Of a stretch of 18,350 nt of DNA, positions 4,074 through 18,350 are shown piece after piece. The stretch's first letter is position 1, and each line of letters starts with the position of its first letter. The translations under genes and the position numbers were made by a program. The notes under the pieces were generated by a model. That model made no database searches, was not told the DNA's origin, and saw only the letters and a list, made by a program, of their open reading frames with translations. Source of the stretch: an uncultured Spirochaetales bacterium (GTDB lineage Bacteria > Spirochaetota > Spirochaetia > DTKZ01); assembly GCA_937991975.1 (NCBI GenBank), contig CALKLC010000061.1:1-18350 (forward strand), read 5' to 3'.

Positions 4074-4475
4074 ATGCTCTTGCGTATGGATAGTGCAGAA
4101 CGATTCTATAGACAGTTGGATAAACTACAACAGACCCACCCGCCGGTTAGTTTCCGCACAGCTGTCCGGGAAGTACAGAGAGCCTTCGAAGAGGCGATGA
4201 GCAATATCCCCGAAACGTTGACAGAGGCCATTTACCTTCATTTCCTCGATTCTTTCAACCATGCGGAGCTTCCCGAGGAAAAATTTGTATCCTACGCATA
4301 CCGGCTGGGTCCCTATATCGATGTATTCTGGAAGCGGTATGACGAGGAGGAAGATCCCATTCCCGAGGAAGAATGGATCTTCCTGAAAGAAGCCGTATCT
4401 GAGGCAGCCGGAGAGATGGATCTCAAACTTCTCACATATATCATGCAGCTCATCATGGATAAGGGGCTGATCTAA
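4074..4475 (+). CDS. hypothetical acidic helical protein (133 aa), divergent from the ptsN-like gene
   Basis: Long ORF with coding-like composition. No motif I recognise. No clear SD, so the start is uncertain (4074 or 4086). Confidence 0.45.
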   Translation: MLLRMDSAERFYRQLDKLQQTHPPVSFRTAVREVQRAFEEAMSNIPETLTEAIYLHFLDSFNHAELPEEKFVSYAYRLGPYIDVFWKRYDEEEDPIPEEEWIFLKEAVSEAAGEMDLKLLTYIMQLIMDKGLI

Positions 4476-4542
4476 ACCCGTGAATACTTGACCTGTATCT
4501 TAAAGAGGGGTTCGCACAACGTATTAGTTTTACTCTTTAATA

Positions 4543-4563
4543 AGTGGTGCCAAAATTGTGGCG
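4543..4563 (-). repeat. Copy A of the intergenic repeat family, reverse orientation (AAGTGGTGCCAAAATTGTGGCG)
   Basis: It is the exact reverse complement of the core CGCCACAATTTTGGCACCACTT. It forms an inverted pair with copy B, with 100 nt between them. Confidence 0.85.
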
Positions 4564-4663
4564 AAGGTAGCAACTTCAACAATCACCTTACTGCCCGGCG
4601 GGTAAGGTTCGGCTGTGCATGGATTCGCAAGGATAAAAGGCCCTTGCAAAACCGTCAGCGAGA

Positions 4664-4690
4664 CCGCCACAATTTTGGCACCACTTTAGA
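4664..4690 (+). repeat. Copy B of the intergenic repeat family (CCGCCACAATTTTGGCACCACTTTAGAT)
   Basis: The 27-mer at 4664-4690 is identical to copy D (5987-6013). It lies in the convergent intergenic region between the hypothetical gene and the dehydrogenase. Confidence 0.85.
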
Positions 4691-4723
4691 TCCCTTCCGG
4701 CTCTTCTGGGTGAGGAGTGTCGC

Positions 4724-5698
4724 TCAGTTCACCACATTCTGGGGCTTCCCCTCCAGGAAGGCCTTCAGGTTCTCTGCGGCGGTGTGCATGAGGCGTTTGC
4801 GTGCCTCCAGGGTTGCCCAGGCGATGTGGGGAGTGACGATGCAGTTCTTTGCCTTCAAGAGGGGATTGTCCGCTTTCGGGGGTTCGGTAAAACCTACCAC
4901 ATCGAGAGCTGCTCCTGCAATCACCCCATTGTTCAGGGCATCGGCCAGATCTTCATCCACCACCAGTCCGCCTCGAGCAACGTTGATGAGGAAAGCAGAC
5001 TTTTTCATGAGCTTCAGGGTGTTCTTGTTGATCATGCCGGTATTTTCCGGGAACAGGGGGCAGTGGAGGCTTACCACATCGGAACGTTTCAGGAGGTCTT
5101 CCACCTCGGCCCATTCGAAGGGATAGGAGGGAGGGTTTTGCCTGTAGGTATCGTACGCGAGGATCTTCATACCGAAGGCCCGGCCGATCTCTCCTACACG
5201 CCGGCCGATCCGACCGAATCCAACAATTCCCAGGGTGCGGTCGTACAGTTCTATCAGCGGATAGTCCCAGAAGCAGAAATCCGGCTGGTTTGACCATTTT
5301 CCTTCTTTTACTACTCTATCGTGATGACCCACATGGTGGCAGAGTTCGAGAAGGAGAGCAAAGGTAAACTGGGCGACATTCACGGTCCCATACTCGGGAA
5401 TGTTGGTCACCGGGATCCCCTTCTGCCGGGCATACTTGAAGTCTACCACGTTGTATCCTGTAGCAATTACCCCGATGTACTTGAGGCGGGGAAGCTGATC
5501 GATGGTTTCCTTTGTAAGGGGGGTCTTGTTGGTGATAAGGACATCCGCGTCCTTACTCCGCGGTACGATATCCGCAGGGTTGATGGTACGATCATACACG
5601 GTAAGATTCCCTAAAGCCTCGAACTCGGACCAGGGATTGTCACCTGGATTGAGGGTATACCCATCCAGTACGACAATGTTGATGTTTTTCTTAGCCAT
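4724..5698 (-). CDS. D-isomer-specific 2-hydroxyacid dehydrogenase (glycerate dehydrogenase / hydroxypyruvate reductase-like)
   Basis: GIVGFGRIGRRVGEI is a Rossmann NAD-binding site. The catalytic-domain motifs NVARGGLVDE and TPHIAWAT are also present. The ATG at 5698 has AAGGAG 5 nt upstream. The track start (GTG at 5704) adds 2 aa. Confidence 0.88.
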   Translation of the reverse strand: MAKKNINIVVLDGYTLNPGDNPWSEFEALGNLTVYDRTINPADIVPRSKDADVLITNKTPLTKETIDQLPRLKYIGVIATGYNVVDFKYARQKGIPVTNIPEYGTVNVAQFTFALLLELCHHVGHHDRVVKEGKWSNQPDFCFWDYPLIELYDRTLGIVGFGRIGRRVGEIGRAFGMKILAYDTYRQNPPSYPFEWAEVEDLLKRSDVVSLHCPLFPENTGMINKNTLKLMKKSAFLINVARGGLVVDEDLADALNNGVIAGAALDVVGFTEPPKADNPLLKAKNCIVTPHIAWATLEARKRLMHTAAENLKAFLEGKPQNVVN

Positions 5699-5731
5699 GG
5701 CCACTCCTTCGAATGAGTTGTATTATGGTTT

Positions 5732-5744
5732 GTATTCAGAATAC
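5732..5744. promoter_or_regulatory. Perfect 13-bp palindrome GTATTCAGAATAC, about 35 bp upstream of the dehydrogenase start; candidate operator
   Basis: Direct reading. It sits in the presumed promoter region of the minus-strand dehydrogenase gene. A TTGTATT direct repeat lies beside it. Confidence 0.3.
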
Positions 5745-5862
5745 GACAGATATATAACAAATATGGGAAAGGATGTCTACAGCTTAGGAGAGAAAAGTAT
5801 CGCCCCGTGAGGTGCGGGTATTCTTTAAGGGGTATTTTCAGGCACGGTCCGGCATTAATAAA

Positions 5863-5885
5863 AAGTGGTGCCAATATTGTTGCGG
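5863..5885 (-). repeat. Copy C of the intergenic repeat family, reverse orientation, slightly diverged (AAGTGGTGCCAATATTGTTGCGG)
   Basis: Two mismatches to the core. It forms an inverted pair with copy D, with 101 nt between them. Confidence 0.8.
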
Positions 5886-5986
5886 TTTCGCTTAGAATTG
5901 TAAAATGAGCTTTCTATGTTTTCAGGCCCTTATCCAATAAGGCCTTGCCCAGGTGAGACAACAAGATCTATGGGGAAGTTTTCCCC

Positions 5987-6013
5987 CCGCCACAATTTTG
6001 GCACCACTTTAGA
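5987..6013 (+). repeat. Copy D of the intergenic repeat family (CCGCCACAATTTTGGCACCACTTTAGAT)
   Basis: 27-mer identical to copy B. A GC hairpin plus T-rich tract follows at about 6021-6040 on the plus strand. Confidence 0.85.
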
Positions 6014-6103
6014 TAGAATGAACCAGGCCGGGCCTTTCGTATCCGCTGCCCGCATTGAAAAGGGGGAGGCCAACTGATTCGGCCGCCAGAGCAAAAGCGG
6101 GAA

Positions 6104-6562
6104 TTATTCCCCCAGGGCGTTCAGTATCTCCTCTGCATGTCCTTCTGGTTTCACTTTGGGGAACACGTGAGTGATCCGGTTCTGCTCATCCAGGATGAAG
6201 GTGGAACGGATAATCCCGAAAAAGGTCTTTCCGTACATTTTCTTTTCTCCCGCGGCGCCGAACTCCTTGATCACCTTCATCTCTGGATCGGATAGGAGGA
6301 TGAAAGGGAGCTGATACTTGTACCGGAACTTTGCGTGCTTTTCCACCGGGTCCGCGCTGATCCCGATTACAACCGCACCTTTCTCTGCGATTCGCGTGTA
6401 CACATCGCGGAATCCGCAGGCCTCCTTCGTGCACCCGGGGGTATCGTCCTTCGGGTAGAAATAAATGACCTTTTTCTTCCCCGCGAAATGGGAGAGCTTT
6501 ACCTCTTTCCCATCTGCATCCTGTAACGAAAAATCTGCAATTGATTCGCCTATTTGTTTCAT
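6104..6562 (-). CDS. bcp: thioredoxin-dependent peroxiredoxin, Bcp-type (AhpC/TSA family)
   Basis: MKQIGESIADFSLQDADGKEVKLSHF...YFYPKDDTPGCTKEAC is the peroxidatic Cys motif (TPGCT). Length is about 153 aa from the ATG at 6562. The upstream extension in the track ORF is AT-rich promoter DNA. Confidence 0.88.
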   Translation of the reverse strand: MKQIGESIADFSLQDADGKEVKLSHFAGKKKVIYFYPKDDTPGCTKEACGFRDVYTRIAEKGAVVIGISADPVEKHAKFRYKYQLPFILLSDPEMKVIKEFGAAGEKKMYGKTFFGIIRSTFILDEQNRITHVFPKVKPEGHAEEILNALGE

Positions 6563-6605
6563 GCGTTTAAAATATTGATTTTTCTGTCGTCTGGCAAATT
6601 GAGTG

Positions 6606-6620
6606 AATTTTGGCACCACT
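6606..6620 (+). repeat. Copy E of the repeat family, partial (AATTTTGGCACCACT); immediately upstream of the gntR -35
   Basis: 15-nt match to the conserved half of the core. Confidence 0.6.
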
Positions 6621-6632
6621 GTAAATTTAGTA

Positions 6633-6683
6633 TTGACATACTGTAATAGTACAATTAAAATTGTACTATATGAATAGTACAAA
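6633..6683 (+). promoter_or_regulatory. sigma70-type promoter and autoregulatory operator of the gntR operon
   Basis: The -35 is TTGACA at 6633-6638, followed by a 17-nt spacer and the -10 TAAAAT at 6656-6661. An interrupted palindrome AGTACAATT-AA-AATTGTACT (6648-6667) overlaps the -10. A third half-site ATAGTACAAAT lies at 6673-6683 inside the start of the ORF. The geometry is typical of autorepression. Confidence 0.6.
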
Positions 6684-7071
6684 TGGGGGAAAAAAGCTTT
6701 CGATCCGGTTGGACGGTGCTTCGGGAGTGCCTTTTTACCGACAGATCATCCAGCAGATCGAACAAGCGATCCTCTCGAAACGACTCCTTCCCGGCGATAG
6801 ACTTCCCACGATCCGTTCCCTCGCGATCGAGCTGAAGATAAACCCCAATACCATCGCGAAGGCATATAACGAACTGGAAATCCGGGGAATCGTAGTTACC
6901 CAGGTAGGAAGCGGCACCTATGTCTCAGATAAGGAAATCGATATGGCCGAAAATGAGCGACAGAAAAAAATCGAAGAAAGCATAGCCCGATTCCTTCGGG
7001 AAATGGATGCACTAGGAGTCTTGAAGTCAGAGATACCCAGGCTAATCCGTGAGTTTAAGGAGGAAGAATGA
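6670..7071 (+). CDS. GntR-family transcriptional regulator, short YtrA-like subfamily
   Basis: An N-terminal winged-HTH region (RLPTIRSLAIELKINPNTIAKAYNELEIRGIVVTQVGSGTYV) is followed by a short C-terminal helical dimerisation tail of about 130 aa in total. An ATG at 6670 or a TTG at 6661 is possible. The stop overlaps the next gene (ATGA). Confidence 0.85.
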   Translation: MNSTNGGKKLSIRLDGASGVPFYRQIIQQIEQAILSKRLLPGDRLPTIRSLAIELKINPNTIAKAYNELEIRGIVVTQVGSGTYVSDKEIDMAENERQKKIEESIARFLREMDALGVLKSEIPRLIREFKEEE

Positions 7072-8216
7072 TCTTGTTCAATAAATCGAGGGATCAGGGG
7101 AAATTTCCTCTGATCAAGAATGTGGAGCCTAAAAAGACTCGAAAAGATTTCCGTATGGATGCGGTAGGGTTAGGAGCCCTTGCGCTCTTTGTGGTGTGCG
7201 TCGCGATTGGCCTTGCGCTGGGAGGTCGGCCTCCTAAAGCAGAGGTTCTGGGGATCCTCCTGGGAACACCCGTTGCGGCTTCCCTACTCATGACCCTTTT
7301 TCCCCGCTGGAGTACAGCGGTAAAGTTTCTCTTAGTGCTGGGATTGCTGGCTGCCCTGTGGCAGTCAGAACAAATGGGGATGGTTCTTGCCGTTGGAGCT
7401 GTAGGAGCCCTCGTGGCACCAGCGGTACAAAAGATGGAAGAGTGGGAACGATCTATCGTTCTTCGGTTCGGGAAGTTCCATCGGGTACGGGGGCCGGGGC
7501 TTTTCCTCCTGTTCCCCTTGATCGATCGCATTGCTCAGGTGGTGGATCTCCGGATCCGGGTTACGGACTTCTCTGCAGAAACGACTCTGACACGGGATTC
7601 GGTCACTGTAACGGTGGATGCCCTTTGCTTCTGGCTCGTATGGGACCCTGAAAAGGCAGTGCTGGAAGTGCAGAACTACGAGGAGGCGGTAATCCTTTCC
7701 TCGAAAACAGCGTTGCGGAATGCCATCAGTAAGAACGATCTGTCCACGTTCCTGGAGCGGGGAGAGGAGATCGAAGAGCAGATCCGAAGCGAAGTGGACA
7801 GGAAAACTACCGAATGGGGAATCACTGTCCAGCACATCGAAATCACCGATATCCAGATCCCGGAAAGCCTCCAGGTTTCGATGAGTCGATTGGCCCAGAT
7901 GGAGCGGGAGAAGAAGGGCAGGATCCAGCTGGCAGAAGCGGAGATCGAAACCGCCCGGCGCCTGGTTGAGGCAGCGGGGATCTATGGGGAAAACCGAACC
8001 GCATTGCGATTGCGAAAACTAGCAGTGCTGAACGAGGGGCTAAAGGCAGGGAACGGCATGATCCTTATACCGAACGAACTGGCTCGGGAACTCCGCGGGG
8101 GCGGGGTTCTTGGATTGGCCGCCCTCGAGGAAGCGAGGCAAACCAATAAGGAAAAGATGAAACCAGACACACAATCCGAAATCCAGGAAGAAGATGACGG
8201 GAGTAGTAAACAATGA
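7068..8216 (+). CDS. SPFH (band 7 / stomatin-like) membrane protein with an N-terminal 4-TM extension
   Basis: Four hydrophobic segments lie in aa 30-120. The SPFH core follows (EWERSIVLRFGKFHRVRGPGLFLLFPLIDRIAQVVDLRIRV ... VTVDALCFWLVWDPEKAVLEVQNYEEAV ... LRNAI), then a stomatin-like coiled-coil tail. AAGGAGG lies 5 nt upstream. The stop overlaps the ABC start. Confidence 0.85.
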   Translation: MILFNKSRDQGKFPLIKNVEPKKTRKDFRMDAVGLGALALFVVCVAIGLALGGRPPKAEVLGILLGTPVAASLLMTLFPRWSTAVKFLLVLGLLAALWQSEQMGMVLAVGAVGALVAPAVQKMEEWERSIVLRFGKFHRVRGPGLFLLFPLIDRIAQVVDLRIRVTDFSAETTLTRDSVTVTVDALCFWLVWDPEKAVLEVQNYEEAVILSSKTALRNAISKNDLSTFLERGEEIEEQIRSEVDRKTTEWGITVQHIEITDIQIPESLQVSMSRLAQMEREKKGRIQLAEAEIETARRLVEAAGIYGENRTALRLRKLAVLNEGLKAGNGMILIPNELARELRGGGVLGLAALEEARQTNKEKMKPDTQSEIQEEDDGSSKQ

Positions 8217-8896
8217 TCCTTGTGGAAGCGAGAGAACTGGTAAAAGACTACACGACGAATGGACTTACGGTGCATGCCCTTCGAGGAATCTCGTTGACTA
8301 TGGAACAGGGGGAGTTTTCGGCCATAGCCGGCCCTTCGGGTAGCGGGAAGTCTACCTTACTCCACCTGGTGGGATGCCTCGATGTCCCCACTGCCGGTAC
8401 GATCCGGATCGAAGAAACGGATATTTCCACCCTGTCGAGGAAGGAACTGGCCTTTCTGCGGCGGCGGAAGATCGGCTTCATCTTTCAGGCGTACAACCTG
8501 ATTCCGGTGCTTACAGCCCTGGAGAATGTATCCTTTCCTCTGACACTGTTGGGGGTTGATCGGAAGGAAGCCCGGCGCATGGCTCTGGAAGCGCTGGCAT
8601 CGGTGGGCCTGGAGGGGATGGGGAATCGGAAACCGAAAGAGATGTCCGGAGGGCAGCAGCAGCGGGTAGCGATCGCCCGTGCGCTGGTGAAAAAGCCTTC
8701 CCTCGTGCTGGCGGATGAACCGACTGCCAATCTGGACTCCCAAACAGGGAGAGAGATCCTGGAACTGATGCTATCGCTGAACCGATCGCTGGGTACCACC
8801 TTTCTCTTCTCTACCCACGACAGGATGGTGATGGAGTATGCGAGGCGGCTCGTCCACCTTCGGGACGGCCTGGTGGAACGGGAGGAGCGTCGATGA
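8213..8896 (+). CDS. ABC transporter ATP-binding protein, LolD/MacB/FtsE-like
   Basis: Walker A is GPSGSGKST, the signature is LSGGQQQRVAIARAL, and Walker B is LVLADEPTANLD, followed by an H-loop. ATGA overlaps occur at both ends. Confidence 0.92.
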   Translation: MILVEARELVKDYTTNGLTVHALRGISLTMEQGEFSAIAGPSGSGKSTLLHLVGCLDVPTAGTIRIEETDISTLSRKELAFLRRRKIGFIFQAYNLIPVLTALENVSFPLTLLGVDRKEARRMALEALASVGLEGMGNRKPKEMSGGQQQRVAIARALVKKPSLVLADEPTANLDSQTGREILELMLSLNRSLGTTFLFSTHDRMVMEYARRLVHLRDGLVEREERR

Positions 8897-10425
8897 TAAG
8901 GAGGGAACTCATCGGGATAGCCTTCCGGAACCTCTCCCGACACAGGGTAAAAACGATCATAACGGTTACGGGAGTGGCGGTAAGTGTGGCCCTCTACATT
9001 TTCATGGACGCATGGCTATTAGGGATGAACCTCGATTCAAAGCGAAACATCGTTTCGTACGAAATAGGGGCAGCCAAGATCCAGACCCAGGCTTATTTCG
9101 AAAAGAAGGATGATCTACCGATGTACGAAAGCTTCTCTAACTGGAAACCCATCGTGCAGGCCCTGGAGGAAGGAGGGTATGTGGCAGCACCCCGTATGGT
9201 TTTTAGCGGCACCCTATACTCCCGATCCGGGTCAGCCCCCATGGTGTTTCACGGAGTGGACCCCAAGGCAGAACGAAAGGTGTTACGGTACAGTAACTAC
9301 CTGGAAGTGGGGAGATTCCCCCAAGGGGGAACTTTCGAAATGGCTGTGGGATTGCTGGCCGCAGAAAAACTGAAACTCCACATTCCACAAAAGATTACGG
9401 TTAAGGAACTGGAAGAGAAATTACTGCGAATGGCTTTGCATCCAGATGAAGAGGCGTTTGTGCGGAGGTTGTATGAACATAAATTGTACAGAACATCAGG
9501 AGAAACGGGAAAAAGAGGGGAGGGGCAGCTGGTTGAGGGCGTCTACTTCCTGCGGCGGGATGTATCCCGGGAAGAGTTGAACCGATTCTGGGATCTCCTT
9601 CTTTCCTCGGGCGAAAACGATGTCAGGATCTCCACGGTGATCGATATCAAGGAGGAGTCCGGTAAGATCCGGCATGTGTACCAGGTGATGGAGGGGAAAG
9701 TGGTGGGGATCATCAATTCCCCCAATCCCAAGACCAACGGGAACGTGGCCTACCTCCCCCTTGATGTACTTTCAGGAGAAGCGGGCCTTCTTCTGGAAGA
9801 CCAGGTCACGGAAATATTGGTACGGGGAGCTTCCGCAAAGGATGGGTCTCTACCAAAACCCGATGAAACACCGGAGGCGATCGTGGAGTCGTTGAAACGG
9901 GTTGGCTATTCTTTACCTCCCACTCTCCGGGTGTATAGCTGGATGGACTATGTGAAGGATTACATCGCTGCATCCCGGCAGGATGATGTGACAACTCGGA
10001 TCATGATCCTCCTTCTCTTCATCCTTTCCTTCCTGGGGATCGCCAACACGATGCTGATGGCGATCCTGGAACGAACCAGGGAGATCGGCATGATGCGGGC
10101 TCTGGGGATGACGGATGGAGAGTTGATTCTATCCTACCTCTTCGAGGCTGGAATGATTGGATTGATCGGTGGGATCGTGGGGATGGTTCTTGGCTCTGTG
10201 GCGAATATTCCGATGGTGAACTACGGGGTCGATTACTCCTCCATGGCGCGTGAATTGAGTGGAGATTTCGGGTATCGGATCACTGCCCTGTTCCGTTCAG
10301 CCTGGAATCCTGGAACCATTATCGGCTCAGGAATCGTGGCCACCCTCATTTCCGCACTGTTGAGTATCCCCCCTATTCTCCGGGCACTGAAGATGCCTGT
10401 CACCGAAAGTCTCCGCTTTGAGTGA
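8893..10425 (+). CDS. ABC transporter permease, FtsX/MacB-LolCE type (4 TM with a large periplasmic domain)
   Basis: TM1 at the N-terminus is followed by an approx. 330-aa extracytoplasmic domain. The FtsX C-terminal 3-TM block follows (IMILLLFILSFLGIANTMLMAILERTREIGMMRALGMT). Confidence 0.88.
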   Translation: MIRRELIGIAFRNLSRHRVKTIITVTGVAVSVALYIFMDAWLLGMNLDSKRNIVSYEIGAAKIQTQAYFEKKDDLPMYESFSNWKPIVQALEEGGYVAAPRMVFSGTLYSRSGSAPMVFHGVDPKAERKVLRYSNYLEVGRFPQGGTFEMAVGLLAAEKLKLHIPQKITVKELEEKLLRMALHPDEEAFVRRLYEHKLYRTSGETGKRGEGQLVEGVYFLRRDVSREELNRFWDLLLSSGENDVRISTVIDIKEESGKIRHVYQVMEGKVVGIINSPNPKTNGNVAYLPLDVLSGEAGLLLEDQVTEILVRGASAKDGSLPKPDETPEAIVESLKRVGYSLPPTLRVYSWMDYVKDYIAASRQDDVTTRIMILLLFILSFLGIANTMLMAILERTREIGMMRALGMTDGELILSYLFEAGMIGLIGGIVGMVLGSVANIPMVNYGVDYSSMARELSGDFGYRITALFRSAWNPGTIIGSGIVATLISALLSIPPILRALKMPVTESLRFE

Positions 10426-10439
10426 GGAGGAGGTCGTAG

Positions 10440-11753
10440 ATGGAGGTAATGAAAGGGCTGGAAAGTAAGGGGAGCCCTATAGGGAGAAAGGCGCGTGGTG
10501 GGAGTGGATCTCTCGATCTCCTTCTCATTGCGTATCGAAACCTGAATCGGAACAGGCGGCGCACGATCCTCTGCGTGGTGGCGGTGGCCCTGGCCGTGTT
10601 CTTCAACATCTTCATGCAGTCCTGGATCGAGGGGATGTACAAGAGTATCGAGGAAGTGGTACAGACTTTCGAGACAGGGCATCTCCAGCTGGTTTCGAAG
10701 GGGTTCGAGGAGGAGAAAGAGTACCTGCCGGTCCAATTTCCCCTGGAAGACGGAAAGGCTGTTGAGGATCTTGTGTCTCGCATCGAAACCCTTCCCGGGG
10801 TGAAAGCTGCTCTCCCTCGAATCGTCACTTATGCCTCCCTCTTCGATAGTGTGGTGAAACATGCAATTGTCTGGGGTATCGAGGGTGAGCGGGAGCTGTC
10901 TCTTCATCCCTTGAACCTGACGGAACGGGGGAGCGGGATGGTGGAAGGTAGATTCCCCCGAAAGGGTGAAAATGCCTGTGCGGTAGGAGTAGGGTTTGCC
11001 GGAAAAGCAGGCATCAGGGTAGGAGATCGACTTCCCTTCAAGATGGTATCTGCTCAATTTTCCGATAAGTTCTGGAATCCCGAAGTGGTGGGGATTTTCA
11101 AGTTCGACTACCGGAAGTACGACGAGGGAGTGATCCTCGTCCCTTTTGACCGGTTGCAGAGAATCCTCGTACTGGGGGAAGGCACCCAGCAGCTGTTCAT
11201 ATATCTCGAGGATGCTGCGTACGTAGAGGAAATGAAACAGCCGATCCAGGCCCTTTTAGGTGAAGGTTCTGTAATCCATTCCTGGAAAGAGAATTATTGG
11301 GTTGCTTACCTCCGAAACAGCACATTTCTCTTTGTGATTATCTTTTCTGTGTTCCAGATCGTAGCGAGTTTCCTCATTATCAATACGATTGTTATGGTGA
11401 TCCACGAACGGATCAAAGAGATCGGGATGATGGGCGCTTTGGGGATGACAAGAGGCGAAATCGTACAGGTGTTCTTCTTCGAGGCAGTGCTATTGAGTGT
11501 GTTCGGCGCCTTTGCGGGGAGCTTGTTGGGAGGTATCGTGACCTGGATCGGATCCCTATTCCCCCTCGATATGGAAATGTTCACCGGGGGGGGAATGAAG
11601 GACTTTCCCATTTCAGGAACTCTCATTCTAACCTTCTCGGTCCAGATTCTGGGGAAAGGGTTCCTGTTCGGAGTAGTGGTCTCCGCTCTCTGTACCCTGT
11701 TTCCTTCATTGAAGAGTGCCTTCATCGAACCGGTAGAAGCATTACGGAGATAG
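10440..11753 (+). CDS. ABC transporter permease, second FtsX/LolCE-type paralogue
   Basis: Same architecture as the first permease (IVMVIHERIKEIGMMGALGMT). GGAGGAGG lies upstream. Confidence 0.88.
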   Translation: MEVMKGLESKGSPIGRKARGGSGSLDLLLIAYRNLNRNRRRTILCVVAVALAVFFNIFMQSWIEGMYKSIEEVVQTFETGHLQLVSKGFEEEKEYLPVQFPLEDGKAVEDLVSRIETLPGVKAALPRIVTYASLFDSVVKHAIVWGIEGERELSLHPLNLTERGSGMVEGRFPRKGENACAVGVGFAGKAGIRVGDRLPFKMVSAQFSDKFWNPEVVGIFKFDYRKYDEGVILVPFDRLQRILVLGEGTQQLFIYLEDAAYVEEMKQPIQALLGEGSVIHSWKENYWVAYLRNSTFLFVIIFSVFQIVASFLIINTIVMVIHERIKEIGMMGALGMTRGEIVQVFFFEAVLLSVFGAFAGSLLGGIVTWIGSLFPLDMEMFTGGGMKDFPISGTLILTFSVQILGKGFLFGVVVSALCTLFPSLKSAFIEPVEALRR

Positions 11754-11770
11754 AAAAGGAGGTTGCCACC

Positions 11771-12571
11771 ATGACAAAAGGTACACAAGTTCGAGGAGGC
11801 TTGGTTCTATTTGCGGCCCTACTGGTAACTTCATTTCTTCCCACCCCTGGCATCGCTCAAGCGCAGGACTCCTCTGGCGGGGTACATCCTGGAGTGCCTT
11901 CGGCCGTCGAACTCCTGGCCCGGGTAGATGCCAACGAGGTGTACGATTCCATCACCTACGAAGGAGAGATGGTGATCGAATACCAGGGGAAACGGTTCCT
12001 CAAGGTATTCAAAGCTGCCGGCCGGGGAAATACGGATAGTTTCGTGGAGTTCTTGAATCCTGAGGATCGGGGAACCAGGTACTTGAAAAAAGAAGGGCGG
12101 TTATACGTGTATTCCCCCGATACCGAGTCCATCATGCTGATCTCGGGGCACCTATTGAAAGAGTCCATGATGGGTTCTGACCTTTCGTACGAGGATACCA
12201 TTGATAACGACACCCTTTCGGCTCGGTACACGCCCGTTCTTGCAGGGTCCGAGGAAGTGAAAGGGCGGAGAAGCTGGGTGCTGGAACTCACGGCCCGAAA
12301 GCGAACAGAGAGTTACCCGAAACGGAAGCTCTGGATCGATGCGGGAACCGGGGAACTTCTCCGGATGGAGATGTATGCTCTTTCCGGGGCAAAACTGAAA
12401 GAGTACGAACTGATCCGATCCGAGCGGATCGGAAACCGGTATTTCCCCGTCGAATTTGTGATGCGGGATCTCCTCCGTAAGGATAGCCGGACTTTCTTTC
12501 GTATGCGGAATGTGGTACTGGATGCGAGGATTCCGGATTCGGTTTTTAGTATGCGCAACCTCCGCAAGTAG
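11771..12571 (+). CDS. secreted LolA-fold protein (outer-membrane lipoprotein-sorting-protein-like)
   Basis: AAGGAGG lies 8 nt upstream. There is a signal peptide with an AQA/QD cleavage site. The sequence is beta-rich and LolA-like (VFKAAGRGNTDSFVEFLNPEDRGTRYLKKEGRLYVYSP...RSWVLELTA). This family classically neighbours FtsX-type permeases. The ORF-track start at 11297 is an out-of-context upstream extension. Confidence 0.7.
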   Translation: MTKGTQVRGGLVLFAALLVTSFLPTPGIAQAQDSSGGVHPGVPSAVELLARVDANEVYDSITYEGEMVIEYQGKRFLKVFKAAGRGNTDSFVEFLNPEDRGTRYLKKEGRLYVYSPDTESIMLISGHLLKESMMGSDLSYEDTIDNDTLSARYTPVLAGSEEVKGRRSWVLELTARKRTESYPKRKLWIDAGTGELLRMEMYALSGAKLKEYELIRSERIGNRYFPVEFVMRDLLRKDSRTFFRMRNVVLDARIPDSVFSMRNLRK

Positions 12572-12589
12572 GGGGTTGGGCCGCGAAAG

Positions 12590-14050
12590 ATGATCCCAAG
12601 TAAAGGCGTGGAGATGCTGTCCGCGAGAATACAGGAAAAGCAAAGAGAAGTGAAAACAAATCAAAAACAGTGGGAACCACCTCTGCAGGTGCGCCGGCTG
12701 CAGTCTCTATTCTGGGTATGGTTGTGCCTGTGGCTCTTCTCCATAGGACAGGGGAAAGCGTTCGGGGATGGCCAGGTTCCGCCTGCGCACAATAGATGGC
12801 CCCTTTTGGTGGGACACGGACAAACCCTCAGCAATGATCAGGCGCCGCCTGAGCAAAACAAATTGCGCTTTTCGGTTGTTGCAGATACCACTGTGGAGGG
12901 GGCCTGGGTTCCGGGGTATGGGGGAAGTGAGAAGGGAGCGTATGGATTCGAGCAGTACGGGAACCTCCGGCTGGAAGCACCCCTGAAAGAATGGGGAAAG
13001 GTGTATGTGGCGGTGAATGTGCTGGCCGCTTCGGGGACTGCTTTGCCTGGGATATCCTCGACATCTATTGGTCAAGGATCTATGGGGCAGGGGTACGGAT
13101 CCATCGTGGAGCTGGAACGGTTGTACTACCGCCTCGAAACAGAGGCGGTGGATTGGGAAACCGGGCTTCTACGGATCCCCTTTGGGTTTGGACAGGCCTT
13201 CAGGCCTATGGACTTCCTCAATCCTCCCAGTCCTCTCCATCCCGATGCCCGGCCGCGGGGGGTCCTGGGAACTCTCTACACGCAGTATCCTTCCGAAACG
13301 ACTCTTGTAAGGATTTTTGCCGCATCAGGCCCGGATCCTACCCAGACAGACGGTTCCGGAGCTCTGGCCGGGATTTCCGGGGAACTCCATGTTCCTTCTT
13401 CCAGTGTGCAGGTTTTGTACGCGCTCCAGGCTCCCCGGACAGGGGAAAAGCGGCCTACCCATCGTTTGGGTCTTTCCTACAAGTGGGACGGAGAGGTGTC
13501 GATCACTCTGGATGCTCTCTATACCCTCTGGAGAGATGCCCTGGTCACGAATCGGTGGTACGACCGGACGTGGCATCCCATACTCGGGCTGCAGCTGACG
13601 GCAGGCCTGGATGCCTCCTTCGGAGACTTCATCGCTTTCATCCAGTATCTGTACAACGGCTCTGGTCCCCTTGAACCGAAGGATCCTCTTTCCGAACTCT
13701 ACGATCCCTCGAGGGGAAATTGGAGGGATTTGCCTCCGGACAAGCGTCTTTATAGGTCTGATCTGCCCATCGGTGAATGGAATCGGCGTAACTACCTGTT
13801 CGCTTCCCTACTCTACAAGGTGAATGATTACACCCGCCTCAGCCTGAGTAGCACGGTGAACCTGGATGATGGATCCCTGGTTCCCGCGGCTATCCTTGAG
13901 CATGAACCGTTCCAGGGTCTCACGGTGCAGCTTGCTCTGCGGGTGTTCCTGGATCCTGCTCTTTGGGGGATCGGCCCAGAGGGGGAGTTGGGCCCCCTTC
14001 ATACAGGGAAACGGGGAGACTGCTCGGTGAAAGTACGGATCAGGTTCTAA
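12590..14050 (+). CDS. putative outer-membrane beta-barrel protein (porin-like); start uncertain
   Basis: A hydrophobic signal-like segment (LQSLFWVWLCLWLFSIGQG) follows a long charged N-region. An in-frame GTG at 12689 is a plausible alternative start. The sequence is Gly/Tyr/Trp-rich with alternating hydrophobic patterns, and the C-terminus is ...VKVRIRF (terminal Phe beta-signal). Confidence 0.6.
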   Translation: MIPSKGVEMLSARIQEKQREVKTNQKQWEPPLQVRRLQSLFWVWLCLWLFSIGQGKAFGDGQVPPAHNRWPLLVGHGQTLSNDQAPPEQNKLRFSVVADTTVEGAWVPGYGGSEKGAYGFEQYGNLRLEAPLKEWGKVYVAVNVLAASGTALPGISSTSIGQGSMGQGYGSIVELERLYYRLETEAVDWETGLLRIPFGFGQAFRPMDFLNPPSPLHPDARPRGVLGTLYTQYPSETTLVRIFAASGPDPTQTDGSGALAGISGELHVPSSSVQVLYALQAPRTGEKRPTHRLGLSYKWDGEVSITLDALYTLWRDALVTNRWYDRTWHPILGLQLTAGLDASFGDFIAFIQYLYNGSGPLEPKDPLSELYDPSRGNWRDLPPDKRLYRSDLPIGEWNRRNYLFASLLYKVNDYTRLSLSSTVNLDDGSLVPAAILEHEPFQGLTVQLALRVFLDPALWGIGPEGELGPLHTGKRGDCSVKVRIRF

Positions 14051-14892
14051 AGAGTGACCGTTTTGCGTTTTCGTTTGAGAACGTATCGGATCAAGCCGTC
14101 ATCCGGGCGAGGGACATATACCCCGCTCTTCGAACCCGTAAACTCCAGCTGGAAGGTATCTCCCGCTCTGTGAACACGAAACCGTCCAGTACAGGAGGGG
14201 CATTGCAAGATTTCCCCATCCTGAATGTCCGGTCTAGGCACGATCAAAGGCCCGCATGCTGGGCAGGATAGAAGCAACCGGTTTTCCCCTGCATGTCCCA
14301 GAATAGGGGTTAGTTTATCCGATTTCGCTATCGATAGGAAAAGATCCACCAGATGGGGATCGAACTGTTTCCCTTTCTCTTCGGAAAGAATGGAGAGGGC
14401 TTGATCCACAGGCAGGGCAGGCCGATAGGGACGGGGGCTGGTGAGGGCATCGAAGGTATCTGCGATGGCGGTAATCTTTCCCCAGATGGTGATACTATCG
14501 CCATCCAGCCTTGCGGGGTAGCCGGTTCCATCCACCCGTTCATGATGCTCCAGGATGCTGTAGCGGATGAGGGGGTACAACGTATGATTCTGCCCGATTT
14601 CTCCTCCTACCACGGGATGCTGCCGAACCACCTGAAACTCCTGATCCGAAAGGGGGCCATTCTTATTGAGGATTCCATCGGACACTCCCACTTTCCCTAG
14701 ATCGTGCACCATAGATCCCAACTCGAGTACGAATTGATAATTCTTGTCCAAACCGTATCGCATCCCCAGGAGAACGCTGTAGCGGCTTACCCTCCAGATA
14801 TGTCCCCCTGTGTAGGGGTCCCGAGCTTCGATGACAGAGGCCAGGGCGATCAAAGATTTCAAGAGATGGTTGTGGATTTCGATTTTTTTCAT
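14047..14892 (-). CDS. HD-GYP domain phosphodiesterase (likely c-di-GMP) with a C-terminal MJ0042-type zinc-ribbon
   Basis: HD (VHDLGKVGV) and HHERVDGTGYP motifs are present. The C-terminus has CPACG...CPSCTGRFRV, a CxxC...CxxC ribbon. There is no N-terminal sensor domain. The stop overlaps the stop of the convergent barrel gene. Confidence 0.85.
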   Translation of the reverse strand: MKKIEIHNHLLKSLIALASVIEARDPYTGGHIWRVSRYSVLLGMRYGLDKNYQFVLELGSMVHDLGKVGVSDGILNKNGPLSDQEFQVVRQHPVVGGEIGQNHTLYPLIRYSILEHHERVDGTGYPARLDGDSITIWGKITAIADTFDALTSPRPYRPALPVDQALSILSEEKGKQFDPHLVDLFLSIAKSDKLTPILGHAGENRLLLSCPACGPLIVPRPDIQDGEILQCPSCTGRFRVHRAGDTFQLEFTGSKSGVYVPRPDDGLIRYVLKRKRKTVTL

Positions 14893-14924
14893 TCTACCAA
14901 TGTACCCTGTAAATGGGATTTCGT

Positions 14925-16604
14925 CTAATGAGAAAAGAACAGTTTTACCATCGGAAGGTTCGCAGGGACCTCGCCTATGCCCACAGAGCTTCCTGGTTCG
15001 TTCCTTTTTAGCTTCTGGCAGGCCAATTGCCCGGGAACAAAATTCTCATACTTCTGGCAAACGGTCTTCCGGCGTGCAAGCGATTGGTTTGAAAGCCCCT
15101 GGCGTGCAGGCCCTTGCCGTGATGGATTCCGAAAGGTCAGGAGACGGTTTGTCCTCTGGATCTCCTGGATAAGGGCTTCCTCTTCTTTAGTTTTCTGTTC
15201 CTTTTTCAGGAGGTTCACGTACCGGCAAAGGCGAAAGGCCGTTACCAGTTCTTCTGTGGTTAGAGAACCTGTCCATGGATACGCGAAGGATCCGCGGCTC
15301 GATCCCGGATGCTTCAGGAGCAGGTCAGGAGGCGGCGAGAAGCCCGGAATCCCGGGCACGGGGTAGAAGAGGGAAATCCCCAGTAGGGTGGGAAGAGGTT
15401 GGAGGAACTGGATCTGCTCTACGATCCGTTCCGGCGTATCAGCCTCGAGGCCAGCAATGAAATAAGTGATGGAAGAAGCTCCTCGATTATGGATTTCTTT
15501 GACTACGTCGAGGTAGTGGGATAGATCGACCGGGCGGTCTACCTTGAAGGCCGTTTCCCAATAGATCGTTCCAAGGGATAGGTTGAAGCGATGGAAACCG
15601 TACTGGATCAGCTGGTCGATACGGGAAGGGTCCAGCAGGAGATAGTCCAGACCGTTTTCTGCGGAAAACAGAACAGAAGGATGGATGGATTTAACCAGCT
15701 TTAGAACCTCGAAGAAGTACTCTGGCGCGCAGAGAAGATTATCATCCTCGAAGTTCAGATAGAGGATCGGTTTAGGTGGAAGCTTTCGGATCGCCCGCTC
15801 GAAAAGCGAGAGGGGTGTCATGCGAAACTCCCGGCCATGACAGAGATAGTTTGAGCAGAACCGGCACCCTTTGGGGCAGCCTCTGCTCAAGGAAGTGGTT
15901 GCCCAGATTTTTTGTGATGTTTCCCTCACAATGGCAACTGTTCCCGTAAGCTCATCCTGTCGGCACAGGTGGTCTGCGCGAATCACTTCGGTTCCTCCCT
16001 CGGCCGATGAGCCCTTTTTCCTCATCAGTTGTTCAATCTTTTCCAGTAATAGAGGGACAGTGACTTCCCCCTCCCCTGCTGCCACGTAGTCGAAGAGCGG
16101 CCTCTGAGCGGCTAAAGAGGACCGGGCATCGTTCTGTTCGAAAGCTGGGGGGGCCACGTTTTGTGTCGTGTAATACTCGGGGCAGGAACTCGGACCCGCA
16201 CCCCCTACGGCGAGGAGTGTAGTGGGTAAAAGGGATCGGATCACTCGAGCAAGGGCGACCGCTTCTTCTGCGTACGCGTACGCGAAGGAGGAAAGGAACA
16301 CTGCGTCAGGTTGAAAGGTATAGATCCTGCGGCCACATTCCTCGAAAGGGGGGCCAAAGTGCTGGAATCGGGTGAAAAACGATAGGGGGCCGAACTCGGT
16401 AGGAACCATGTAGGGGAGAAGGTGGGAAGCCTCTTCGGGTAAGGGAATCGTATATGAGCGCTCCTTTTGGGGAAAAAGAAAAAGCTTTACTTCGTGCCTT
16501 CTTTCCCTACAGAGATCAGCGACAATTCTCGCGCCCAGAGCGCTCAGGCGATGGGGGGTAAGGTAGAAATCCCGGATCGGGGGGGCAACCACAGCAATAC
16601 GCAT
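14925..16604 (-). CDS. B12-binding-domain radical SAM protein (COG1032-like)
   Basis: An N-terminal Rossmann-like cobalamin-binding region (MRIAVVAPPIRDFY...) is followed by the SRGCPKGCRFCS CxxxCxxC radical-SAM cluster motif. Length is 559 aa. Confidence 0.8.
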   Translation of the reverse strand: MRIAVVAPPIRDFYLTPHRLSALGARIVADLCRERRHEVKLFLFPQKERSYTIPLPEEASHLLPYMVPTEFGPLSFFTRFQHFGPPFEECGRRIYTFQPDAVFLSSFAYAYAEEAVALARVIRSLLPTTLLAVGGAGPSSCPEYYTTQNVAPPAFEQNDARSSLAAQRPLFDYVAAGEGEVTVPLLLEKIEQLMRKKGSSAEGGTEVIRADHLCRQDELTGTVAIVRETSQKIWATTSLSRGCPKGCRFCSNYLCHGREFRMTPLSLFERAIRKLPPKPILYLNFEDDNLLCAPEYFFEVLKLVKSIHPSVLFSAENGLDYLLLDPSRIDQLIQYGFHRFNLSLGTIYWETAFKVDRPVDLSHYLDVVKEIHNRGASSITYFIAGLEADTPERIVEQIQFLQPLPTLLGISLFYPVPGIPGFSPPPDLLLKHPGSSRGSFAYPWTGSLTTEELVTAFRLCRYVNLLKKEQKTKEEEALIQEIQRTNRLLTFRNPSRQGPARQGLSNQSLARRKTVCQKYENFVPGQLACQKLKRNEPGSSVGIGEVPANLPMVKLFFSH

Positions 16605-16616
16605 TCCTATTCCATC

Positions 16617-16892
16617 TTACCCTTTCTGTGAGGTGTCCTCTAACAACCGAACTACTTCTTGTTCTTCTTTTTCGCTCTGTTGACCCGCCTGATCCAGATC
16701 CTGTATGGCTTTTTGGGCGGATTGATTGTAGAATCCGAGTTTTCTGATAATAAAAGTGATGGTATCAAGGTACTGGGAGAATTTCTGGAATTCTGAGAGT
16801 TGCTGAGTAGCCTGGACCACGGCTGTTAGGTCTTCTGAGCTTTGTCTCGAGGCGAAGCTTAGTCCCTGGATCACTTGTTCTACCTCTTTCAT
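16617..16892 (-). CDS. small Q/E-rich helical protein (91 aa), hypothetical
   Basis: The ORF abuts the upstream 54-aa ORF (TAGATG) and ends 12 nt before the radical SAM start. Operon position supports it. No motif I recognise. Confidence 0.5.
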   Translation of the reverse strand: MKEVEQVIQGLSFASRQSSEDLTAVVQATQQLSEFQKFSQYLDTITFIIRKLGFYNQSAQKAIQDLDQAGQQSEKEEQEVVRLLEDTSQKG

Positions 16893-17057
16893 CTACTGGG
16901 ATTCTTCCTTCAAAACAGGTTGTAGTTCTCCTTGCCCTTCTAAAGAACGCTGAATTCGTTCACCCTGGGATTGGAGGGTGGAATCTACCTCACTGATTAC
17001 CGTATACAGGTGATGAAACAACTGCTGAGCCTGCCCAAGGTATTCTCCCTGATTCAT
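16893..17057 (-). CDS. small helical protein (54 aa, MNQGEYLGQAQQLFHHLYTVISEVDSTLQSQGERIQRSLEGQGELQPVLKEESQ), hypothetical
   Basis: Hand translation of the minus strand. The ATG is at 17057 and the TAG stop at 16893-16895, directly followed by the ATG of the 91-aa ORF. It is not in the supplied track because it is under 60 aa. Its Q-rich composition resembles that of the neighbour. Confidence 0.4.
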   Translation of the reverse strand: MNQGEYLGQAQQLFHHLYTVISEVDSTLQSQGERIQRSLEGQGELQPVLKEESQ

Positions 17058-17267
17058 GGTACGGTCCTGTATAACACCAACTCGAGAGAGGACCTACTTT
17101 AGGTTAGTGGGTGTAGTTCGACTTTTCTCAATCTCCCCCTGTAGATCTTCCATGAGCCTACGAACTATTAGACCGATGGCGGCAGATACAGCACCCTGGA
17201 AAAGGAACACGACGGCAAAGATGGACCTTCTTTCCGCAAGGGTAGGTACACCAGCTCGAGTTATGAA

Positions 17268-17507
17268 TCATACCATACTCACGATTGAAATGAATACAAG
17301 GGAGCCCCGGTAGCCAGGGGAAACGAGAATGCCCGCTGGCGTGATGAAACCCATAAGAAGACCTACTACGGATATGAGGACTGCTGGGTAGATCGTAGTG
17401 TTCGGTATGTTCAGGTACCCTACAGCGAGGATCGTAAGGCATAAGGTGCTGAGTAAGCACAGTTGCCAATACACGGTGTTACACCTCCGGGCAACGCCCG
17501 CCTGCAC
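17268..17507 (-). CDS. small membrane protein (2 TM in the first 79 aa) terminated by TGA; the frame stays open a further 57 codons to the TAG at 17094-17096 and includes a third TM
   Basis: Codon 80 is TGA. Hand translation of the same frame continues FITRAGVPTLAERRSIFAVVFLFQGAVSAAIGLIVRRLMEDLQGEIEKSRTTPTNLK. The protein is either disrupted or a read-through candidate. Confidence 0.5.
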   Translation of the reverse strand: MQAGVARRCNTVYWQLCLLSTLCLTILAVGYLNIPNTTIYPAVLISVVGLLMGFITPAGILVSPGYRGSLVFISIVSMV

Positions 17508-17552
17508 AAAGGCTTGAAAGGTAGTAAGCCCATTCTAGAATCACCTTTGAAA

Positions 17553-17575
17553 CCGCCACAATTTTGGCACCACTT
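17553..17575 (+). repeat. Copy F of the intergenic repeat family (CCGCCACAATTTTGGCACCACTT), followed by AATAAGAG
   Basis: Exact 23-nt core. It lies in the divergent region between the membrane-protein gene and the 3'-partial gene. The outer flank TTAATAAGAG resembles the flank of copy A (TTATTAAAGAG). Confidence 0.85.
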
Positions 17576-17676
17576 AATAAGAGCTTTAGGTTCCTCTCCT
17601 TACGTTTTAAATTAGAAAAGGTATGCCCTGGATTCAAGGGTATCTAAGGAAAAAGTTTCTTTTATGGTGGTTGCCC

Positions 17677-17705
17677 TTTCAAAACTTAGAATGGATTACT
17701 ATAAT
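17677..17705 (+). promoter_or_regulatory. candidate sigma70 promoter for the 17734 gene
   Basis: TTTCAA at 17677-17682, a 17-nt spacer, and TATAAT at 17700-17705. AAGGAG lies at 17723-17728, 5 nt before the ATG. Confidence 0.4.
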
Positions 17706-17733
17706 AGAATTTATATTTATCAAAGGAGTATCC

Positions 17734-18350
17734 ATGTCCGATCTGTATCGCCTGCGAACCCTCGATTCTCTGCAACGGAAAGGGGTGTATGTGAATGATT
17801 ATCCAGGTCTCATCATGGACGGTAAGGATATCAGCTATTTCTACTTTCATTTCGAAAAGGAACTGTTCTTTCCTAATGGTGGGGCCGAGGGAAAACGGGG
17901 CGGGGCGGCATTGATGGATCGGGTAAACAAACTGGTTGCCGCATACAACGAGGAGTTCGCCCTGGTGGGGTTGGATAAGGAACTCCGTATCTTCTACCTG
18001 GACGATCAGGGCTTTTGCATCCTGGGACGGGTGGAGGACGAAAAGGAGACCCTCAGGTTCATGATCAACAAGAAAGAGCTGGTGTCGGACCGTGTGTTTC
18101 AGGTGAATCTGAGGAGGATCTATGCGGCCGAGGGGATCGATGGGTTATACCAGGTGCAGAATACAGAGGTAAAAGGGGTATACGAAGGAATCACCAAGTA
18201 CATATCCCTCTACATGTACGGATGGTTTGGGTTGTTTCGACAGTACGAAACTCTGCAGGAACGGACCAAGGTGTTTCGACAATTCAAGCCTTTCAAAATA
18301 CCCCTCATCGGCAGAAAAGAAACCCTGAAGAACGCTACGTTCACCCTACA
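17734..18350 (+). CDS. hypothetical protein, 3'-partial (runs off the right edge)
   Basis: An ATG with a strong SD. The frame is open for 205 codons to the end of the window (MSDLYRLRTLDSLQRKGVYVNDYPGLIMDGKDISYFYFHFEKELFFPNGG...). It is not in the track because no stop lies within the window. Confidence 0.6.
   Translation, partial: MSDLYRLRTLDSLQRKGVYVNDYPGLIMDGKDISYFYFHFEKELFFPNGGAEGKRGGAALMDRVNKLVAAYNEEFALVGLDKELRIFYLDDQGFCILGRVEDEKETLRFMINKKELVSDRVFQVNLRRIYAAEGIDGLYQVQNTEVKGVYEGITKYISLYMYGWFGLFRQYETLQERTKVFRQFKPFKIPLIGRKETLKNATFTL

Follow-up and report, generated by a model that had tools for sequence, protein, structure and literature searches.

The subject of this analysis is a stretch of 18,350 nucleotides from an uncultured Spirochaetales bacterium (positions 1 to 18,350 of contig CALKLC010000061.1, assembly GCA_937991975.1; this whole stretch is hereafter the window), and more precisely a short sequence that recurs between its genes. 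The proteins encoded there are closest to those of uncultured Spirochaetales metagenome-assembled genomes (MAGs), with about 60% identity to their counterparts in Gracilinema and Breznakiella. An initial annotation, made from the DNA letters alone, had noticed six intergenic copies of the repeat, four of them arranged as two inverted pairs, and had left a choice between several explanations. We shall argue, with some reserve, that the copies are the ends of a small dispersed element, and we weigh this reading against others, in which they would be binding sites, hairpin repeats, invertible segments, RNA genes or uptake signals.

Arms, pairs and units

When the window was searched for the 23-mer CCGCCACAATTTTGGCACCACTT, with up to three mismatches permitted and 200 shuffles as a control, five matches carrying 0–2 mismatches were found, together with one truncated copy, where the shuffles gave a mean of 0.00. 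The repeat family is thus real, with a chance expectation of none, and the gene calls bear out the placement first reported, every copy in the window lying between called genes. We call these copies arms. Arm A (4542–4564, minus strand, TCGCCACAATTTTGGCACCACTT, one mismatch) was recovered by the motif search, by a repeat finder and by a profile of 11 arms; arm B (4664–4686, plus strand, no mismatch to the consensus), arm C (5863–5885, minus strand, CCGCAACAATATTGGCACCACTT, two mismatches), arm D (5987–6009, plus strand, no mismatch) and a further arm at 17553–17575 (plus strand, no mismatch) were returned by both the motif search and the repeat finder. Arm C points towards the start of a dehydrogenase gene, 164 nt off, and the arm at 17553 towards a gene that starts at 17734. 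The truncated arm has kept the outer 15 nt, AATTTTGGCACCACT, at 6606–6620 on the plus strand; the repeat finder delivered it as a partial copy spanning 6599–6626, and the arm profile scored it at E=0.0011. It sits in the divergent spacer between a peroxiredoxin gene and a gntR gene, and its end lies 12 nt before the gntR −35 box, TTGACA at 6633. The arm profile disclosed no graded series of weaker copies.

Four of the arms form two inverted pairs, as had been proposed: A with B (4542–4563 and 4665–4686, 22 nt, 100% complementary) and C with D (5862–5885 and 5987–6010, 24 nt, 92% complementary), the arms being 101 nt apart in both. An identical 27-mer had been attributed to B and D; the identity stands, and the shared stretch is actually 28 nt long (4664–4691 and 5987–6014). 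The sequences enclosed by the two pairs, by contrast with their first description as unrelated, are distant homologues: a global alignment of the AB interior (minus strand) with that of CD (plus strand) gives z=4.2, a value equalled by one of 2000 shuffles, while the plus/plus comparison remains at background level. Arms and interior therefore make up a unit, with the layout outer arm, interior of about 100–120 nt, inverted outer arm. Unit AB (4540–4688, about 149 nt, both ends intact, unit profile E=3e-35) is placed on the minus strand, which is the strand that aligns with CD(+), and is flanked by convergent genes, a hypothetical gene of 133 aa ending at 4475 and a 2-hydroxyacid dehydrogenase (D-) gene ending at 4724. 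Unit CD (5862–6010, plus strand, 149 nt, both ends intact, E=1e-38) stands between tandem genes, in the interval from the peroxiredoxin stop (6104) to the 2-hydroxyacid dehydrogenase start (5698).

Two arms had been taken for single copies. The distances assigned to them were right, namely the 12 nt to the gntR −35 box and the 102 nt that separate the end of the 17553 copy from a TTCAAA-16-TATAAT promoter at 17678, but the latter copy is not a lone one: it forms the preserved end of a third unit of full length, the other end of which has decayed. This third unit (17439–17577, minus strand, about 139 nt, E=3e-34) gives with CD(−) a local alignment of 114 nt that reaches the expected place of the second arm, and BLAST aligns 17482–17575 with 5955–5863 at 72% over 95 nt. 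The putative decayed distal arm (17443–17462, minus strand, AAGGTGCTGAGTAAGCACAG, 8–9 of 23 positions kept) is a weak call, placed by alignment position only. Around the third unit, 676 nt (17058–17733) hold no called gene and no open reading frame (ORF) matching Pfam, and the gene from 17734, as well as the small genes at 16617–16892 and 16893–17057, have no family match and no counterpart at that place in relatives. Taken together, the units of the family measure 139–164 nt, and the ORFs noticed in them by direct reading are only 6–28 codons long and are not conserved.

A family restricted to one lineage

An exact-pattern scan of JGI metagenomes brought six further true copies, all of them in metagenome Ga0067045, from an organism that belongs to the Spirochaetales, judged by the relatives of its response regulator. 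Two of its loci, L008 and L010, contain full units homologous to CD, with the distal arm truncated or decayed; CD and L008 share 76% identity over 72 nt, L008 and L010 74% over 96 nt, and the arm spacing in L008 is 120 nt as against 101 nt in AB and CD. Three other copies (L005, L006 and L009a) are bare arms of 23–27 nt, lodged in the 58–70-nt spacers of tandem genes, where they begin 3–15 nt past the upstream stop codon. The homology extends from end to end in at least five units, three from the window and two from Ga0067045 contigs, each with different neighbouring genes, which are ordinary housekeeping genes at non-orthologous loci. A unit profile also retrieves a truncated sixth copy (L009, 1198–1237). 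As this profile was built from the very five units that it scores, at E=1e-31 to 1e-38, it is partly circular, and independent support for the homology of the units comes from the pairwise alignments. In locus L009, two arms in direct orientation (405–427 and 1198–1220) surround a complete gene for an OmpR-type response regulator (434–1123), one of them in the 58-nt spacer that precedes the following gene, itself cut off by the end of the locus, and the other in the divergent promoter region.

Other collections were poorer. Exact-pattern matches in GTDB genomes of a Balneolaceae and an Alteromonas were set aside as due to chance (about 0.3 expected by our estimate), lying as they do inside coding sequences, in unrelated phyla and without similarity in their flanks, and two metagenome matches, L004 and L007, were discarded on the same grounds. 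Nothing similar was found in viral contigs or, by BLAST, in plasmids, and sequence searches of the literature gave no relevant match to the motif. The repeat family is undescribed, but of a well-known kind, that of small repeats with terminal inverted repeats (TIRs).

A lineage-specific, highly conserved and over-represented oligomer, sometimes found as inverted pairs downstream of genes, is also what would be expected of a sequence acting like a DNA-uptake signal and over-represented through biased uptake in natural transformation, as the initial annotation had suggested. Known uptake signals, however, have cores of 9–12 nt and are present inside genes too. Here the true copies without exception lie between genes, the conserved block comprises at least 17 invariant positions, and the motif is embedded in homologous units of about 150 nt, so that we hold this explanation to be exceedingly improbable.

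The window can be compared with another strain, represented by a 62.8-kb ENA metagenome contig (L003) that is 99.75% identical to it over 15,698 nt, with 40 substitutions and no gaps, and that also carries AB and CD. One of these substitutions falls in arm A (4546, where C becomes T within the invariant CACCAC) and another 4 nt before arm D (5983); they are too few for showing either constraint or relaxation. The same comparison bears on the possibility that the units are invertons, in which a site-specific recombinase would flip the segment of about 100 nt and turn an outward promoter to or from the neighbouring gene. Inverted repeats of 22–24 bp around the segment, sigma-70-like matches shared at homologous positions by two units and the mutually opposite orientation of AB and CD would all suit such a device. 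Yet the two assemblies compared are collinear over the 15,698 nt with both units in the same orientation, the window holds no recombinase gene, AB is found between two gene 3′ ends, and units with one decayed arm would be unable to invert; invertons are, in our opinion, very unlikely.

Sister species offer the contrasting picture. About 116 kb of non-redundant sequence from related Spirochaetales, orthologous spacers included (loci L011/L012, L013, L014, L016–L021, L022–L025, L026 and L027–L030), contained no full or core copy, as compared with five copies and a partial one in the 18-kb window. The convergent gene pair around AB is separated by 10 nt in L011 and by 248 nt in the window. Around CD, homology to relatives ends at 5762 and resumes at 6107, which locates the unit inside a lineage-specific spacer of about 340 nt (5763–6103), and the gene neighbourhood differs from that of L011, L016, L022, L026 and L027. 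The third unit follows a gene-order break after a radical SAM gene. As for the truncated arm, L016 and L022 do not have it in their otherwise conserved gntR promoter region, and it is found in the window lineage only, the core promoter and operator of gntR being conserved in three species. The family has dispersed to unrelated intergenic loci, and it is absent from the sister species.

A few observations concern the genes around these spacers rather than the repeat itself. The gntR gene (YtrA-like, 133 aa) has at 6633–6672 a promoter TTGACA-17-TAAAAT, with a perfect palindrome of 20 bp, AGTACAATTAAAATTGTACT (6648–6667), over the −10 box and an ATG at 6670, 8 nt past it, in a block that is nearly identical in L016 and L022; because the palindrome covers the −10 box and the ATG comes so soon after it, this arrangement suggests a leaderless, autoregulated transcript. 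On the other side, the spacer upstream of peroxiredoxin has been remodelled in the window lineage. The peroxiredoxin gene there (6545–6600) has lost the GGAGG ribosome-binding site present in its relatives (L016 7680–7740, L022 9420–9480), and a promoter match TTGCCA-17-TATTTT ends 6 nt before the ATG (6562), possibly another leaderless start. The region downstream of peroxiredoxin is different in all five sister-species loci examined, and one sister species has a tyrosine integrase gene (L016 4692–5966, L017 3010–4284, L020 1980–3254) 1.3 kb downstream of peroxiredoxin, at the place that CD and the dehydrogenase occupy in the window. Finally, a 69-nt direct repeat of the window (10044–10112 and 11381–11449, 78% identity) is not a mobile repeat: it is the same conserved segment of two tandem paralogous genes for FtsX/MacB-type permeases.

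Folding, promoter matches and hairpins

Both complete units are predicted to fold far better than shuffled sequences, AB with z-scores of −7.0 and −8.0 and a closing stem of at least 22 bp, CD with z-scores of −5.8 and −5.5, and a GC-rich hairpin stands near the centre of each unit. Sigma-70-like matches occur at homologous positions in two of them: CTGAAA-17-TACAAT in CD (5897–5925, minus strand), pointing outward through arm C, and TTGAAA-16-TAGAAT in the third unit (17514–17541, plus strand), pointing outward through the intact arm, their function as promoters being putative in both cases. Strong predicted folds, a central hairpin and promoter-like matches could be the marks of genes for structured small RNAs, a family in which a long terminal stem would close each molecule, and a pair of such RNAs had been among the options initially proposed. 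This proposal found no support. Both strands fold equally well, because any inverted repeat does, and no terminator follows the units. An Rfam scan of the window returned no match even at E≤1, and a tRNA scan found none. RNAalifold, run on the five units, gave a covariation term of +6.8, which is penalising, and 2 compensatory pairs among 32, both outside the invariant arm stem, the sequences being few and the power low. Small RNA genes are accordingly given hardly any credence here.

The near-palindromic core of the arm had been correctly recognized at the outset. It is the dyad GCCAnAATTnTGGC, which extends to GGTGCCA/TGGCACC (7+7 bp) in one metagenomic copy, L006, and which is not consistently kept: among the 11 aligned arms, at least 17 positions are invariant, and the dyad varies in its inner half. 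Two readings of the arm as a promoter element were tried on the aligned arms and flanks and abandoned. For TGGCAC as part of a sigma-54 promoter, the position 10 nt downstream of GG falls in the unconserved flank and has no GC; for TTGGCA as a sigma-70 −35 box, the hexamer found 16–18 nt further on resembles a −10 box in only 2–3 of 11 copies, as judged by inspection.

A near-palindrome in extragenic inverted doublets and singlets, much better conserved than the spacer and, as a singlet, placed directly after stop codons in the spacers of tandem genes, calls to mind the repetitive extragenic palindromic (REP) sequences and their REPIN doublets, which are hairpin repeats moved as single-stranded DNA by a single-copy RAYT (an IS200/IS605-like Y1 transposase). 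The hairpin does not fit this comparison. On its own the 23-mer forms a stem of only 4 bp with a 6-nt loop, at −5.1 kcal/mol, and the extension of the stem is not conserved among copies; the interiors, moreover, show homology throughout, as those of an element bounded by TIRs would, and neither a Y1 transposase nor a RAYT is present in any fetched locus. We therefore judge a REPIN origin to be distinctly unlikely, and to deserve little weight.

A mobile element or a maintained site

Among the explanations offered at the start, a family of the REP type (including the bacterial interspersed mosaic elements, BIMEs) or of the type of the miniature inverted-repeat transposable elements (MITEs) is the best fit, and the evidence leans to the MITE side: TIRs, a non-coding body of about 150 nt, homologous copies scattered over non-orthologous loci of two organisms, and none in the sister species. 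Bacterial MITEs are shorter than 200 bp, have TIRs and a terminal TA, lie between genes, carry promoters and act through RNA stems (PMC2229807). We consequently favour the view, with a probability of roughly 0.55, that the 23-mers are the TIRs of a small, non-coding, dispersed MITE-like element proper to one uncultured Spirochaetales lineage.

How such an element might have behaved can be sketched. It would have spread in the lineage after its split from the sampled sister species, its copies being mobilised in trans by a transposase encoded elsewhere, which would bind the 22–24-bp ends and could be of the IS630/Tc1-mariner type. Two traits of the ends hint at a partner of this type, their likeness to the Tc1 end and the TA that often adjoins them. 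The outer end of the family, TAAGTGGTGCCAAAATTG, and the Tc1 end, TACAGTGCTGGCCAAAAAG (PMC3680223), are identical at 11 of 16 positions without gaps, in a comparison made by eye against a single primer sequence; the base that comes after the terminal CCACT is T in all 11 arms and is followed by A in five of them, TA being enriched beside single arms and the flanks of the units being AT-rich. The partner ORF would be expected to have AAGTGGTGCCAAAATTGTGGCG on its flanks, no more than about 100 bp away and in inverted orientation. We propose that the ends have stayed near-identical while the interiors drifted to an identity of about 50% because propagation is limited to copies with recognisable ends; single ends and one-ended units would then be what is left of older insertions. 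Transcription of a complete unit, in the convergent 3′ region for AB or between tandem genes for CD, would let its ends pair as an RNA stem of 22–24 bp, and this stem could influence the processing or the stability of the messenger, as for other bacterial MITEs and REPs, and the outward sigma-70-like match beside one end in two units might add promoter activity of its own.

Several facts weigh against this interpretation. No target-site duplication can be defined: AB has TA on its left and TT on its right, in CD a single side has TA, and neither complete unit shows the same dinucleotide on both sides, whichever frame is read. No clean empty site was met with, the differences between orthologous spacers exceeding the length of a unit. 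No transposase, let alone one with matching ends, turned up in the window or in about 50 kb of Ga0067045 contigs (about 70 kb and 42 ORFs examined), and there are no near-identical copies, unlike what a recent burst of transposition would produce. A further difficulty lies in the arms. Across the five-unit alignment, intact arms are identical at 21–23 of 23 positions between any two units, decayed arms at 5–16 of 23, and the interiors at 38–56%. Arms are thus bimodal, either intact or fully decayed, over interiors that drift, and from near-invariant arms and diverged interiors we may deduce a probable constraint on the arms that the interiors escape; it has the appearance of selection acting directly on the arms. 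Conserved ends can nevertheless be explained by transposase recognition across diverged sub-lineages. There are also the three bare single arms within tandem-gene spacers of 58–70 nt, and the fact that, within tandem spacers, copies that are single or one-ended face the downstream gene in five of five cases (p about 0.03, one-sided, on small numbers), the surviving arm being gene-proximal in all three one-ended units. Single arms that face downstream are not predicted by a model of pure junk remnants.

These points are the strength of another explanation, in which the arm would primarily be a binding site for a protein of the host, or for a domesticated transposase, for example a dimeric regulator or a nucleoid-associated protein, the units being a former vehicle or a set of cooperating sites. 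The bimodal conservation of the arms, the bare arms just upstream of genes in short spacers with their common orientation (five of five), the surviving arms turned to the downstream gene in the three one-ended units, the dyad with its extension in L006, and the truncated copy ending just ahead of the gntR −35 box all speak for it. Several observations speak against it, and we hold it to be unlikely. The distance from arm to start codon takes the values 29, 32, 35, 44, 74, 102, 158, 164 and 178 nt; the functions encoded downstream are unrelated (PurK, a class IV aminotransferase, a surface protein, a response regulator, a dehydrogenase, gntR); the site is missing at the orthologous promoters of sister species, though the core gntR promoter and operator are kept there; three of the arms (A, B and D) are turned towards the 3′ ends of genes; and the inner half of the dyad varies. 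The unrelated functions of the neighbouring genes led us to reject a regulon and, with the variable start distances and the orthologous promoters devoid of the site, a classical operator as well. An operator pair acting by DNA looping at fixed spacing, as envisaged in the initial annotation, fares no better: to the same objections (starts at 29–178 nt, unrelated functions, no conservation in orthologous spacers) are added an unequal spacing (101 nt for AB as for CD, 120 nt for L008) and the fact that most copies elsewhere are single.

The MITE-like element and the binding site might also be two stages of one history. The arms could be a lineage-specific site of about 20 bp, bound by a protein and kept by selection (dyad GGTGCCAMAA/TTKTGGCRSC), which was seeded over the chromosome by a MITE, of which the body and the distal arm would decay while the gene-facing arm is retained. 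We find this doubtful, but its consequence would be attractive, as we would be looking at a young network of regulatory or architectural sites caught in the middle of its exaptation; should the contrast between arms and interiors and the ends that point downstream reflect host selection, this would be a clear case of regulatory sites exapted from a MITE. On the favoured interpretation, that of a MITE-like element, the benefits are more modest. TIR repeats are common in bacteria, so that an undescribed family of them is mainly of practical value: it accounts for lineage-specific spacer DNA and local gene-order breaks, it marks likely break points of assemblies, and it supplies a sequence tag for strain typing and for the binning of MAGs.

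It remains to situate the family among known systems. With REP, BIME and REPIN sequences it shares extragenic inverted doublets and singlets, a repeat that surpasses its spacer in conservation, and a location at gene 3′ ends or between cistrons, but its arms are weak hairpins of 4 bp, its spacers are homologous over about 100 nt, and no RAYT was seen. It comes nearer to the Stowaway-type MITEs and the insertion sequence (IS) group IS630-Tc1-mariner, in that ends and size are shared more than the interior, the end is Tc1-like and TA often abuts it; it differs from them in that the resemblance extends over some 16 nt only, TA on both sides is lacking in the two complete units, and a DDE transposase did not turn up. 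The closest parallels are the Correia/NEMIS elements of Neisseria and the RUP elements of Streptococcus pneumoniae. RUP has a partner, IS630-Spn1, whereas for the present family no partner IS, target-site duplication or empty site was found, and, compared with both Correia and RUP, its interiors are far more diverged (38–56%), its ends are near-identical and bare single ends are common. What it has in common with them is the general plan: non-coding, intergenic, lineage-restricted elements of about 100–160 bp, dispersed as homologous copies (PMC2229807), with TIRs of about 20–26 bp, AT-rich or TA termini, a long RNA stem and promoter-like ends.

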